Shown here in pieces: positions 999 to 6,716 of a stretch of 30,932 bases of DNA. A program made the translations under genes and the position numbers. The notes below the pieces were generated by a model. That model did not search any database. It had not been told where the DNA came from and worked only from the letters and a program-made list of their open reading frames with translations. This DNA is from a virus (Duplodnaviria > Heunggongvirae > Uroviricota > Caudoviricetes). How positions within the stretch are numbered: the first letter of the stretch is position 1; each line of letters begins with the position of its first letter. The stretch spans positions 1-30,932 of IMG/VR virus record IMGVR_UViG_2541047956_000008; one strand, written 5' to 3'.

Positions 999-1574
999 TC
1001 ATAATTCTGTGCTGGTGGCAGGAATTAATTTCTGCCAGATAGCGGAAACATATTTTGCCTGATGACGGGCATCAACCAGGGCGTTGTGCCGTTCGCCATC
1101 GAAAGGCATGTCCATTTTGGGGTCGAATCCGATGGAACGCCCAAGCGTAACGATCGTGCGTACATCGTGGTCATTCCAGTATGCCCACGGGCAGATTTGT
1201 CCTGCTCGCTCATAAGCTCCACGTAAAATTACGTTGTCGAAGGTGGCTCCGTTACCCCAGACTTTTAAATATTTCGTATTGTCTGCGTGCCGGTTAATGA
1301 AATGATTTAGTTCTGAGAGAGCATCGCTGATCGACAAAGTATCATCAATACAGATTGCAGCTCGTGCTTCAGGGCTTTGTTTCAACCACCACAGGATGGT
1401 ATCGCCGTCAGGTGTAGCTCCTTGCCCCATAGCACTTTCCAGGCTAACAACCGTATAGAATTCTTGTCCGATGTCTCCGGTTTCTGGAGTGAAGAACACC
1501 GCGCCAATGGAAACGATCGGTGCATCCTTATTTTTCCCCATCGTCTCAAGGTCGATCATTAAGTTGTTCATCAC
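999..1574 (-). CDS. DEDDh-family (DnaQ-like) 3'-5' exonuclease
   Basis: 191-aa ORF with N-terminal MIDLETMG (Exo I D-x-E motif) and C-terminal HNALVDARHQAKY (Exo III H-x4-D motif). Confidence 0.7.
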   Translation of the reverse strand: MMNNLMIDLETMGKNKDAPIVSIGAVFFTPETGDIGQEFYTVVSLESAMGQGATPDGDTILWWLKQSPEARAAICIDDTLSISDALSELNHFINRHADNTKYLKVWGNGATFDNVILRGAYERAGQICPWAYWNDHDVRTIVTLGRSIGFDPKMDMPFDGERHNALVDARHQAKYVSAIWQKLIPATSTEL

Positions 1575-4055: not shown

Positions 4056-4418
4056 TTAATGACCTGCTGCGCGGAGTTTTCCGTCAGGTTCACCGGCAAG
4101 AGTCAGTAATTGTCCCTGGTCTTCCTGCAGAATAGTCAGGCGACCACCGCGATTGACATACATCGGCGTTTCGGTGGTGTCTTCTTCGGAAATTTTCCCG
4201 CGGTTAGTCGGGCGAACATATGAGAGTTTGTGTTTGATTTTCACACGGTTCTCATCAAACGGTTCGATTTCCAGGTTGAGTGAGACCTTACCTTTGGTTT
4301 TCGTGTTCATCACACCGGAAGCGACTTCACTGAGAACTGCGCCGATTTTGGTTTCAAATACGCCGCCGTCCAGCTCCCCGATAAATGCCTGCACATCAGT
4401 ACTGCGTTCGCTAGCCAT
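4056..4418 (-). CDS. YfdP-like small early protein (120 aa), first gene of the leftward operon
   Basis: Start placed at the ATG (complement of 4416-4418) preceded by GAGGAG with a 7-nt spacer. The track's longer 197-aa form begins further upstream without an RBS. Confidence 0.5.
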   Translation of the reverse strand: MASERSTDVQAFIGELDGGVFETKIGAVLSEVASGVMNTKTKGKVSLNLEIEPFDENRVKIKHKLSYVRPTNRGKISEEDTTETPMYVNRGGRLTILQEDQGQLLTLAGEPDGKLRAAGH

Positions 4419-4465
4419 TTTGCTGCTCCTCATCATATCGACCCTGTAAGGTCGGTTAGTTTCTC

Positions 4466-4554
4466 CACAAAACAGAGAAGAACACCTGCGGTGACTGCCG
4501 CCCGGATGGATTGGGTTATGAGCCCGTCGTCCGGTGATGCTCTTCTCTGTTTTG
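4466..4554. repeat. 15-bp perfect inverted repeat (ACAAAACAGAGAAGA / TCTTCTCTGTTTTGT) separated by 59 nt
   Basis: Left arm 4466-4480 is the exact reverse complement of right arm 4540-4554. Lies about 50 nt upstream of the YfdP-like start, inside the PL leader. Confidence 0.6.
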
Positions 4555-4702
4555 TAAAAAGAGCGGTACCAGCCGGAAGCAAGTGTACAAACTGGTACCG
4601 CCAAAGCAGTGGCTGTTGTGGTGGGGTTGTCACTCAGGCGTATGGTCAACCTGACAATCCGGTGTCCTCAACGGGGAAAGAGTAACCCCGCCATACTTAC
4701 CG

Positions 4703-4740
4703 CCGCGCCATTTCGCGGATTACCACAACGCTGAGAGCAC
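4703..4740 (-). promoter_or_regulatory. Candidate nutL-like element (boxA-like plus boxB-like hairpin)
   Basis: On the - strand: GTGCTCTCAGCG (boxA-like, contains GCTCT), a 10-nt spacer, then hairpin CCGCG-AAATGG-CGCGG (5-bp stem, purine-rich 6-nt loop). No N-like gene follows. Confidence 0.3.
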
Positions 4741-5026
4741 TTAGCCAGTTACGGCACCACACTTTGTCGCGGTTCCATAAATGCCCTCATCGTTGCACCC
4801 TGGTCTCTTCCCAGGCGTCAAACCGAATCGCCACGCTGGTTAGGCGTCTTATCAGCATCATCATTGACTTGCACATTCCGGCTACCTGGTTTGTTTGCCC
4901 GAGCAAGGAGTGGATTGTCCCCTTTAACGTCCCCAGACCGCTAACGACGCATGTGCCATACGCCGTGTTACAACCAAATTTTGTTAGTACCTTGTTTGTA
5001 GGTCTGGAAAGAAAGATAAAATGAAG

Positions 5027-5065
5027 TTGCGCATTATGCAAGTGTTTTTATTGCGAGATATGCAA
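5027..5065. promoter_or_regulatory. OL-like operator pair with probable PL promoter (leftward)
   Basis: Two 15-mers TTGCGcattaTGCAA (5027-5041) and TTGCGagataTGCAA (5051-5065) match the TTGCG-N5-(A/T)GCAA pattern also seen at OR (5835-5849). On the - strand TTGCAT-17-TATCTT-like hexamers overlap them. Confidence 0.45.
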
Positions 5066-5121: not shown

Positions 5122-5814
5122 TTAATTGTGTCGCTTAAGGGTTTGTGACTGACTGATTAAGACCTTTCCAAAGACCATAAACCGATGTTCGTTTTCGCTG
5201 GTAATTCCCCATTCGCGGTAAATCTGATTATCAGAAATTACCAGCAGTTTATCAGGTATCATTTGCAGTCGTTTGACGTAAATTTTATCATCAAAACCAA
5301 ATACATATATACCATCCCCATCAAACTGATTGATACTGATATCAACGAAGATGAGATCTCCTGGCTCAATGGTTGGACACATACTGTCCCCACGAACGTT
5401 GATAACTTTAATGTGATTTGCTGGTCGTCCACCAAACATCGATACAGCATTATCAGTTCTGTATTCAATGGCATGAATCACATCAATGACATCACCGCCC
5501 TGGATAAGGCCATTTCCCGCACTGGCACTGACATCCAGCATTTCAATACGGAATACATCCTTCACCTGCGCAACATCCTCACTAATACTGTTTTTACATA
5601 CAGTATTACTTTTGAGGTCTGAGGTAAAGAGATCAGCAATATCAACACCTAAGCTCCTGGCAATATTACTCAGGGCTTGTTCAGTGAATTGTTTCTGCTT
5701 ACCTGTTTCGAGGCGCGAGATATTCGCCGCATCCACTCCTATTGCTTCAGCGAGATCGGCGATTTTCATGTTCTTCGCCTGGCGAAGTTGTCTGACTCGA
5801 TTTCCTATGTTCAT
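5122..5814 (-). CDS. CI-like prophage repressor (N-terminal XRE HTH, C-terminal S24 LexA-like peptidase domain)
   Basis: 230-aa ORF: N-terminal HTH (IADLAEAIGVDAANISRLETGK), C-terminal GDSM serine motif (VRGDSMCPTIEPGDLIFVD) and downstream Lys (YVKRL). Divergent from the Cro-like gene. Confidence 0.85.
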   Translation of the reverse strand: MNIGNRVRQLRQAKNMKIADLAEAIGVDAANISRLETGKQKQFTEQALSNIARSLGVDIADLFTSDLKSNTVCKNSISEDVAQVKDVFRIEMLDVSASAGNGLIQGGDVIDVIHAIEYRTDNAVSMFGGRPANHIKVINVRGDSMCPTIEPGDLIFVDISINQFDGDGIYVFGFDDKIYVKRLQMIPDKLLVISDNQIYREWGITSENEHRFMVFGKVLISQSQTLKRHN

Positions 5815-5834: not shown

Positions 5835-5897
5835 TTGCGCGTTAAGCAAATCAACTTGCGCAAAATATTTGCGTGAAATAATATGCTCATCACGCAA
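5835..5897. promoter_or_regulatory. OR-like operator cluster and divergent PRM/PR promoter region
   Basis: 97-bp AT-rich spacer between divergent repressor and Cro-like genes. Contains TTGCGcgttaAGCAA (5835-5849), the palindrome TTGCGCAA (5856-5863) and the inverted repeat TTGCGTGA...TCACGCAA (5869-5897). Confidence 0.5.
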
Positions 5898-5911: not shown

Positions 5912-6172
5912 ATGCAATCACCATTACGGAATGTGCGTAAGGCGCACGGATTTACTTTGCAGCATGTTGCTGCGGGCGTTCAGGTCAATCCAGCGACGCT
6001 GAGTCGTATTGAAAGACTGGAACAAATTCCATCTATCGATCTTGCAGAACGTCTGGCCAATTTTTTTAAGGGTGAAATCAGCGAAATGCAGATTCTTTAT
6101 CCGGCACGTTTTCAATCTAGCCAAAACCAGAATGGGTTTAAACCACAGGAACAGGAGGTAAGCCGTGGGTAA
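5912..6172 (+). CDS. Cro-like XRE-family HTH regulator
   Basis: 86-aa ORF; GGAGG RBS 5-6 nt upstream of ATG 5912; HTH motif (FTLQHVAAGVQVNPATLSRIERLEQ). Divergent from the repressor. Confidence 0.7.
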   Translation: MQSPLRNVRKAHGFTLQHVAAGVQVNPATLSRIERLEQIPSIDLAERLANFFKGEISEMQILYPARFQSSQNQNGFKPQEQEVSRG

Positions 6173-6716
6173 GCATCACTGGAAAGTGGAAAAACAACCT
6201 GAGTGGTACGTGAAAGCTGTCAGAAAAACTATCGCGGCATTGCCTGGGGGTTACGCTGAAGCTGCTGACTGGCTGGATGTAACAGAGAACGCTTTATTCA
6301 ACCGCCTTCGTGCAGATGGCGATCAGATTTTCCCGCTGGGATGGGCAATGGTTTTACAGCGCGCGGCTGGCACTCACTACATTGCGGATGCTGTCGCACA
6401 GTCTGCTGGTGGGGTGTTTGTATCGCTTCCTGAAATTGAGGAAGTAGAGAACGCCGATATAAACCAGCGCCTGCTGGAAGTCATCGAACAGATCGGGAGT
6501 TACTCAAAGCAGATTCGTTCGGCAATCGAAGATGGGGTAGTGGAGCCACACGAGCAGACAGCAATTAATGATGAGTTGTATCTGTCAATTTCGAAGCTCC
6601 AGGAGCATGCAGCACTGGTCTACAAAATCTTTTGCGCTCCAGAAAAGAGTGACGCCCGCGAGTGTGCAGCTCCGGGCGTCGTGGCGTTTTGTGTCTGTGG
6701 AGAAACTAACGCATGA
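6165..6716 (+). CDS. Putative regulatory protein in the cII position (YdaT-like, tentative)
   Basis: 183-aa ORF with GTG start at 6165 preceded by AGGAGG; overlaps the Cro-like stop. Family assignment is recalled and weak. Confidence 0.4.

Follow-up and report, generated by a model that had tools for sequence, protein, structure and literature searches.

A long inverted repeat closes a structured RNA cassette in the early-left leader of an N-less lambdoid prophage

In the lambda N leader and in the early mRNAs of T7, long stems serve as sites at which RNase III cuts transcripts apart and alters their stability or translation. A second precedent is provided by the dicBF operon of the K-12 prophage Qin, in which the 190-nt species of the small RNA DicF requires RNase III and the 53-nt species requires RNase E (10.1101/2023.04.14.536235). 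As recounted in passages of two further papers, both of which cite Faubladier et al. 1990 for this species, there is also a 72-nt DicF, whose 3' end RNase III generates in read-through RNA by cutting ~19 nt beyond the terminator (PMC5069750; PMC9438474). When the Qin RNA is folded from the DicF 5' end to dicB, a 21-bp stem appears, beginning 8 nt beyond the terminator and stopping just short of the dicB Shine-Dalgarno sequence; DicF position 72, as mapped from lengths quoted in secondary sources, falls 12 nt into the 5' arm of this stem. The initial annotation of the locus described here had invoked the RNase III-processed hairpin of the lambda N leader. The enzymatic analogy is a reasonable one, but the Qin cut ~19 nt past the dicF terminator, rather than the lambda N leader, is the closest parallel.

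The locus in question lies within a 30.9-kb window, by which we mean the whole 30,932-nt stretch of viral DNA that was analyzed. The top inverted repeat of that window, among pairs with arms of 14 nt or more lying no further than 200 nt apart, has perfect 15-nt arms: ACAAAACAGAGAAGA (4467-4481) is followed, after 59 nt, by its exact reverse complement (4541-4555). The same search returned only one other pair, and a weaker one. The 15-bp perfect repeat had been recognized from the outset, but at 4466-4480 and 4540-4554, one base to the left of its true position. Complementarity extends beyond the 15-mers, the repeat search giving 25-nt arms (4467-4491 and 4531-4555) at 84%. In the minimum-energy fold of the leftward RNA, the stem that we call P1 has 20 contiguous pairs, 4536-4555 with 4467-4486, and in the read-through RNA five more pairs, formed by the U-run 4556-4560 with GGAGA 4462-4466, extend it to 25. 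The intervening 59 nt, originally taken for a loop, hold five further stem pairs and two internal hairpins, such that stem P1 closes a three-way junction containing hairpin 1 and hairpin 2. What appears in the DNA as an inverted repeat is, in other words, the helix that closes a structured RNA cassette, carried on the early-left (pL) transcript of a lambdoid prophage without N. The parts of the cassette and its immediate surroundings, in the order of the leftward RNA, are as follows.

4556-4562, minus strand: U-run CUCUUUUU of the upstream terminator, the last five U of which pair with GGAGA 4462-4466.
4536-4555, minus strand: 5' arm of stem P1 (RNA sense), containing the perfect 15-mer 4541-4555; from the fold and covariation.
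4502-4534, minus strand: hairpin 1, with a covarying 5-bp closing stem, an asymmetric internal loop, a GGG/CCC stem and the 7-nt loop CUCAUAA.
4507-4528, minus strand: near-invariant 22-nt core GACGGGCUCAUAACCCAAUCCA, inside hairpin 1.
4488-4501, minus strand: hairpin 2, GCGG-CAGUCA-CCGC, which differs among homologs in sequence and length.
4467-4486, minus strand: 3' arm of stem P1, containing the perfect 15-mer 4467-4481; from the fold and covariation.
4459-4466, minus strand: GGAGAAAC box just 3' of stem P1, which pairs with the U-run and is followed by no start codon.
4437-4456, minus strand: small hairpin separating the cassette from the ribosome-binding site, kept as a hairpin in relatives with a different sequence.
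4426-4431 and 4416-4418, minus strand: Shine-Dalgarno sequence GAGGAG and ATG of the YfdP-like first early-left gene, from the sequence and the mEp460 annotation.

The end of the hairpin is 35 nt from the Shine-Dalgarno sequence and 48 nt from the ATG, in fair agreement with the earlier estimate of about 50 nt upstream of the YfdP-like ribosome-binding site. The GGAGAAAC box is found in 84 of 106 distinct contexts, and GGAGAA in nearly all of them; here and in homologs, the only visible role of the box is to pair with the U-run of the terminator.

That the leftward RNA forms a long stem, as had been predicted, is supported by its folding energy and by the manner in which the sequence has changed among relatives. 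The RNA of 4455-4567 lies far below its shuffles, at -51.2 kcal/mol vs. -26.2 +/- 3.2 (z -7.76, with 0 of 200 shuffles as good), while the opposite strand of the element folds more weakly (-46.7 kcal/mol, z -4.9). Upon scoring an alignment of 39 distinct class-A homologs against the junction structure, 95.7% of cells pair, as opposed to 41-50% in slid-partner controls, and 11 pairs across the whole junction are changed on both sides; none of 500 shuffles reaches the observed covariation score. For stem P1 alone, 96.3% of cells are paired and 6 pairs are changed on both sides, and in hairpin 2 three of the four pairs change on both sides. Examples of double changes include C-G/A-U (18 and 16 sequences), G-C/C-G (28 and 11) and A-U/G-C. 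The arms co-vary, then, and are kept in related phages. A U19-G97 wobble occurs in 36 of the 39 sequences, with G-U also seen at three other positions, and because such pairs would be C-A mismatches on the other strand, the leftward RNA is the selected structured strand. A covariance model built from the same alignment, here termed R1, reaches 109.8 bits on the minus strand, against 42.2 bits on the plus strand.

The direction of the wobble pairs that bears out an RNA-level stem also bears on the suggestion, made in the initial annotation, that the repeat might be a DNA-level protein-binding site. More broadly, the repeat could be a palindrome bound by a protein, an attC-like recombination site or a small mobile element with inverted repeats. 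Sequence is conserved at the arm ends, ACACAAC ... GTTGTGT, which loosely resemble the core sites of integron attC, and the presence of cassettes in several genomic contexts could reflect mobility. Yet pairing is maintained through G-U wobbles that would be mismatched on the other strand, every context seen (early-left, late and the phage P1 tRNA operon) has its cassettes on the transcribed strand, and it is the center of the element, not its ends, that is most conserved. A DNA-level role is thus disfavored, and we consider any version of it very improbable.

The hairpin behaves as a discrete, travelling unit. It occurs at ~84% identity in Salmonella ST64B and in Klebsiella and Citrobacter phages, the full element is present in ~22 Enterobacterales species, and the 228-nt region is matched in 2776 of 5426 complete E. 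coli genomes. Among homologs, the element measures 89, 90, 91, 92, 93, 112, 115 or 116 nt; these length differences, which are not multiples of three, together with the compensatory changes, argue that open reading frames (ORFs) drawn over the hairpin are not genes. Hypothetical-protein ORFs are annotated on the structured leader as ymfH in K-12 e14 (L132 2502-2813) and as gp36 and gp37 in mEp460 (L001 4492-4635 and 4677-5045). A search of Rfam over 4467-4555, in both gathering-score and E-value modes, gave chance-level matches only and no family, and the element is single-copy in the window, with no second copy found in the rightward operon.

The surrounding genes are those of a lambdoid early region. 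Positions 5122-5814 of the minus strand encode a cI-like repressor (Peptidase_S24 plus HTH), and beyond it lie a Cro-like gene (5912-6172) and a CII-like gene (6165-6716); the early-left genes are YfdP-like and, by Pfam, DUF2303, YfbR-like, DUF551 and exoribonuclease-like. The last of these (999-1574, minus strand) carries an Rv2179c-like 3'-5' exoribonuclease domain (E 1e-74), notable beside a leader that seems geared to RNA processing. The closest relatives are the E. coli phages PhiR47_1, mEp460 and cdtI, SfV-like phages and Stx2c phages. A consensus promoter scan returned no leftward promoter near the operators listed below. From the operators, and from the point at ~4985 where homology with phages of other immunity stops, we infer a leftward promoter near 5030-5065. 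The element is ~470 nt from the operators, and the ~600 nt from the putative promoter to yfdP are non-coding and strongly structured (z -5.5). By BLAST, this leader is a mosaic of modules common to different phages. Its principal features are given here, again in the order of the leftward transcript.

5051-5065 and 5027-5041, no strand assigned: two 15-bp operators TTGCG-N5-WGCAA, with a third copy at 5835-5849 between the cI-like and cro-like genes.
4722-4799, minus strand: second long-stem cassette (R1 11.7 bits, and fold), a homolog of the Qin L133 cassette.
4607-4729, minus strand: structured leader module, by eye ~90% identical to Qin between its upstream RNase III cassette and DicF.
4563-4601, minus strand: stem-loop, rich in G+C, of an intrinsic terminator of leftward transcription, with a perfect 10-bp inverted repeat, 4563-4572 and 4592-4601.

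Upstream of these modules, the stretch 4802-4979 shows 79-83% identity both to the non-coding interval that separates tRNA-Ile2 from ban in phage P1 (L131 2001-2185) and to DNA adjoining tRNA-Arg in phiV10-type phages (L004 1501-1745). Two related prophage leaders, L089 (1800-1925, plus strand) and L107 (1077-1203, minus strand), contain 126-127-nt Rfam tRNA matches above the gathering score (40 and 43.9 bits), in which the acceptor, D and T arms are intact and ~68 nt replace the anticodon arm; ARAGORN makes no call on either.

The terminator hairpin and then its U-run abut stem P1 directly upstream. The first reading of the locus was incomplete in this respect, for it described the hairpin and overlooked the terminator with which the element travels. 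By a crude test, a hairpin-plus-U-run is found directly upstream in 88 of the 106 distinct class-A contexts, and most of the others visibly have a terminator; a U-run adjoins the element upstream in nearly all class-A contexts. The first downstream gene, on the other hand, varies among homologs (YfdP-like, Sb37-like, xisE in e14, and others). With the terminator constant and the downstream gene variable, the element belongs with the terminator and not with any particular gene.

This distinction weighs on a further proposal, namely that the hairpin controls translation of the operon, occluding or exposing the YfdP-like ribosome-binding site in the manner of the lambda N leader. Its placement 35 nt upstream of the Shine-Dalgarno sequence, with a small conserved hairpin between the two, would suit such a role. 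In the fold, however, stem and ribosome-binding site neither overlap nor pair, and the element and the GGAGAAAC box remain constant as the first gene changes. Dedicated translational control of yfdP is therefore improbable in our estimation.

The terminator itself is of the DicF type. The window at 4556-4812 aligns as a homolog of the ydfC-dicF interval of Qin, and in alignments to Qin and e14 the terminator hairpin shares UUUGGCGGUAYCAG...CCGCYCUUUUU with Qin dicF, the K-12 DicF seed UUUCUGGUGACG being replaced. The Rfam DicF model (RF00039) has no match in the window at E up to 10. In relatives, it gives sub-threshold matches at the terminator hairpin (29.1 bits in L089 and 28.5 bits in e14, against a gathering score of 48), and in ST64B and e14 the ~200 nt that precede the terminator hairpin give sub-threshold matches to STnc100. 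The module 4607-4729 corresponds by alignment to the body of the 190-nt "long DicF" RNA. Judging from these likenesses, the ~190-nt module 4556-4741 (minus strand) may be a small RNA of the DicF/STnc100 family with different targets.

The precedent of Qin can be taken further still. The R1 model recognizes a Qin cassette (L133 2173-2258) at 20.5 bits, and the rnc-dependent 190-nt DicF species, as mapped from its quoted length, appears to begin inside the 3' arm of that cassette; production of this species requires the cassette upstream of DicF. The homologous second cassette in our window has arms related to those of the element (5' GUGCAACGAUGAGGGCAUU and 3' AGUGCUCUCAGCGUUGUGG). RNase III has a footprint of ~22 bp (PMC6212723), and stem P1, at 20 contiguous pairs or 25 with the U-run/GGAGA extension, has the helix length of an RNase III stem. 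The main text of the global K-12 RNase III maps makes no mention of e14 or ymfH.

From these observations we propose, with moderate confidence, that the element is an RNase III processing cassette that separates a small RNA from an mRNA and releases an RNA resembling a tRNA arm. Starting at the operator-controlled promoter near 5030-5065, transcription would proceed leftward along a modular non-coding leader of ~450 nt, ending in the DicF-type terminator hairpin at 4563-4601 and its U-run. Any RNA reading through would be expected to fold at once into the 20-25-bp helix, 4536-4560 with 4462-4486, that closes the three-way junction. Like the equivalent stem after Qin dicF, this near-perfect helix would be a substrate for the host RNase III, and the conserved stem P1 is probably cut by that enzyme. 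Cleavage there would have three consequences. The upstream small RNA would be left its terminator hairpin, so that the same small RNA would arise by termination or by processing; the yfdP-operon mRNA would acquire a 5'-monophosphate end ~40-50 nt before its ribosome-binding site, with a possible change in stability; and a junction RNA of ~75 nt would be set free, carrying the conserved hairpin that resembles the anticodon arm of initiator tRNA.

Cassettes of the same family occur in other settings. R1 finds four in the tRNA operon of phage P1, all on the strand of the tRNAs, scoring 41.5, 34.2, 24.6 and 20.2 bits, and one of the P1 cassettes abuts the 3' end of tRNA-Thr. The record positions of the P1 (L131) cassettes are ~69063-69145, 69502-69590, 69727-69824 and 70004-70084; two of them overlap plp and upl, ORFs annotated on the opposite strand that may be mis-annotations. 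The phiV10-type phages also have a cassette, which directly adjoins the 5' end of tRNA-Arg. The arms of these cassettes are alike in sequence as well as in pairing (approximately 5' ACAAC.R..RAGRGCAYU and 3' RRUGCYCU...GUUGUG), and the cargo differs from cassette to cassette, being either an anticodon-arm-like hairpin (ACGGGNUCAUAUCCCAAUCUA in phage P1) or T-loop hairpins (GGUUCGAAUCC). A third packaging is seen in Klebsiella phages, where a short 6-7-bp stem with NCCA at its end encloses the core, 6 nt beyond tRNA-Arg or tRNA-Asn; these copies are located between Q and the lysis genes, and sequence conservation ends at the CCA. The closing stem of hairpin 1 covaries across all three packagings.

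A genome-wide scan with a 19-mer from the core gave 73 matches where ~70 were expected by chance. Given those two figures, most non-enteric matches are noise, and matches were retained as possible relatives only if closing stems adjoined them. The 19-mer ACGGGNUCAUANCCCAAUC does occur within 9-14-bp stems in distant phyla, with far more stem than random flanks would give. These loci are in Candidatus Saccharibacteria (L147, L170 and L194), in Acidobacteriaceae (L168, adjoining lysis-type genes) and in a gammaproteobacterial MAG (L203), and the Saccharibacteria copy is inside a structured RNA of ~190 nt that ends in a terminator and has no Rfam match. On checking, the non-enteric ACGGGNUCAUANCCCAAUC matches proved to be neither tRNAs nor known RNAs. 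A second viral scan, with R at the variable position, returned P1-type cassettes only.

The range of contexts is also of consequence for the possibility that the junction acts as a put-like element, binding RNA polymerase and allowing it to read through later early-left terminators in place of the missing N. By Pfam, none of the early ORFs scanned, which were a subset of the whole, encodes an N-family antiterminator; the two hairpins are of approximately put size; the authors describing the related phage LLS speculate about put-like antitermination (PMC12315714); and put is known to work even when cut from the nascent transcript (PMC9378689). Nevertheless, there is no similarity to HK022 putL visible by eye, and R1 finds nothing at put, its score elsewhere in the HK022 locus being 14 bits. 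Whereas putL is promoter-proximal, the element comes after the first strong terminator, ~470 nt from the promoter, and no second copy serves the rightward operon. Moreover, the core also turns up downstream of Q-dependent promoters and among the tRNAs of the phage P1 operon, settings in which a role of this kind would be needless. We regard a put-like function as a rather remote prospect, and the RNase III cassette remains the reading that we prefer.

That preferred reading leaves the cargo to be considered. The 22-nt core is conserved far more than the arms or hairpin 2, with GACGGGCTCATWAYCCAATCCA identical in >120 IMG/VR viral contigs among the matches listed. A plain processing site would have no need of a 22-nt invariant core, and given the stronger conservation of the cargo relative to the arms, the stem may do no more than package it, the main function residing elsewhere. 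The E. coli initiator tRNA gene metY reads ...GTCGGGCTCATAACCCGAAG... and the element ...GACGGGCTCATAACCCAATC..., with 14 identical bases in common. This 14-mer, CGGGCTCATAACCC, covers three G-C pairs and the whole CUCAUAA anticodon loop of the initiator tRNA, a resemblance that was noticed after the fact.

One may then suppose that the stem serves to excise or stabilize a trans-acting small RNA that mimics the initiator tRNA anticodon arm, a tentative and, on balance, unlikely reading. It is compatible with RNase III processing and places the function in the released RNA, the candidate targets of which would be the 30S P site with IF3, MetRS, or a tRNAfMet-cleaving toxin of VapC type for which the RNA would be a decoy. 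Enteric VapC toxins cleave tRNAfMet in its anticodon stem-loop, and all VapC toxins tested cut structures resembling anticodon stem-loops (PMC7180214), by virtue of which a decoy role for the core is conceivable. The near-identity of the core where arms and hairpin 2 vary, the 14 bases in common with metY, the recurrence of the core in early-left cassettes, P1 tRNA-operon cassettes and the Klebsiella NCCA stem, and the covariation of its closing stem in all of these packagings speak in the same direction. Set against them, apart from the post hoc nature of the comparison, are loop variants that depart from CUCAUAA (UUAAUAA in e14 and CUCAUUA in the ST64B type) and the outcome of our literature search on ymfH, STnc100 and tRNA mimics, which gave nothing specific and no description of such a mimic. 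A Pas small RNA preprint was rejected as a parallel, dealing as it does with late-region small RNAs.

In its boldest form, which we likewise find doubtful, this idea would make the long stems interchangeable packaging for an undescribed phage small RNA that mimics the initiator anticodon arm and acts in trans on whatever machinery recognizes that arm. Temperate phages of Enterobacterales would produce it in at least three forms: the RNase III cassette behind a DicF-type terminator, the phage P1 tRNA-operon cassettes, and a D-armless, CCA-ended tRNA-like unit that follows tRNAs in Klebsiella phages. The RNA might act either as a decoy for tRNAfMet-cleaving VapC-type toxins or as a modulator of 30S initiation. 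The notion of the element as a true tRNA was rejected, as ARAGORN makes no call in the window and there is no Rfam tRNA match at E up to 10; on class A and class B sequences, ARAGORN gave only inconsistent calls, in relaxed mitochondrial mode. K-turn and T-loop readings of the 22-nt core were dropped after inspection by eye.

About half of complete E. coli genomes match this region, yet no RNA family covers the element, and genome records carry doubtful ORFs in its place, such as ymfH in K-12 e14 and gp36 in mEp460. If the processing model is true, it would explain how a DicF-type small RNA is coupled to the early-left mRNA in N-less lambdoid prophages, and would widen the single known case, that of dicF, to a whole family of cassettes. 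If the cargo does act as a mimic, it would represent a new class of phage-made tRNA-arm mimic with a bearing on tRNA-targeting defense and counter-defense. The e14 copy makes the question directly testable in K-12.

It remains to place the element among the systems that it most resembles. The anticodon arm of E. coli initiator tRNA (metY) and the element have in common the identical 14-mer CGGGCUCAUAACCC, three G-C pairs closing CUCAUAA, and in Klebsiella phages the element takes on the further tRNA-like trait of lying within a tRNA array and terminating in NCCA. Unlike a tRNA, it lacks both D arm and T loop, and below the three G-C pairs the stem gives way to an asymmetric internal loop. Like HK022 put, the element is an early-operon RNA of two hairpins and comparable size in a lambdoid phage that lacks N; unlike put, it is single-copy, far from the promoter and behind a terminator. 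The hairpins of the lambda N leader and the T7 early mRNAs are likewise long stems in phage early polycistronic RNA. Here, though, there is no nut site or N gene, stem P1 stands clear of the ribosome-binding site, and what the stem encloses is a three-way junction that is itself conserved, in a cassette whose family recurs with conserved arm sequences. Closest is Qin dicBF, also a repressor-controlled early operon of a lambdoid prophage with a homologous upstream leader, in which the same order is seen of DicF-type terminator, U-run and 20-25-bp long-range stem shortly before the next ribosome-binding site. The Qin stem differs in that its arms are not sequence-homologous and enclose ~110 nt of other cargo, without the anticodon-arm-like core. 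The element would then be a processing stem of a kind known from phage RNAs, one that carries a highly conserved cargo resembling the anticodon arm of initiator tRNA.
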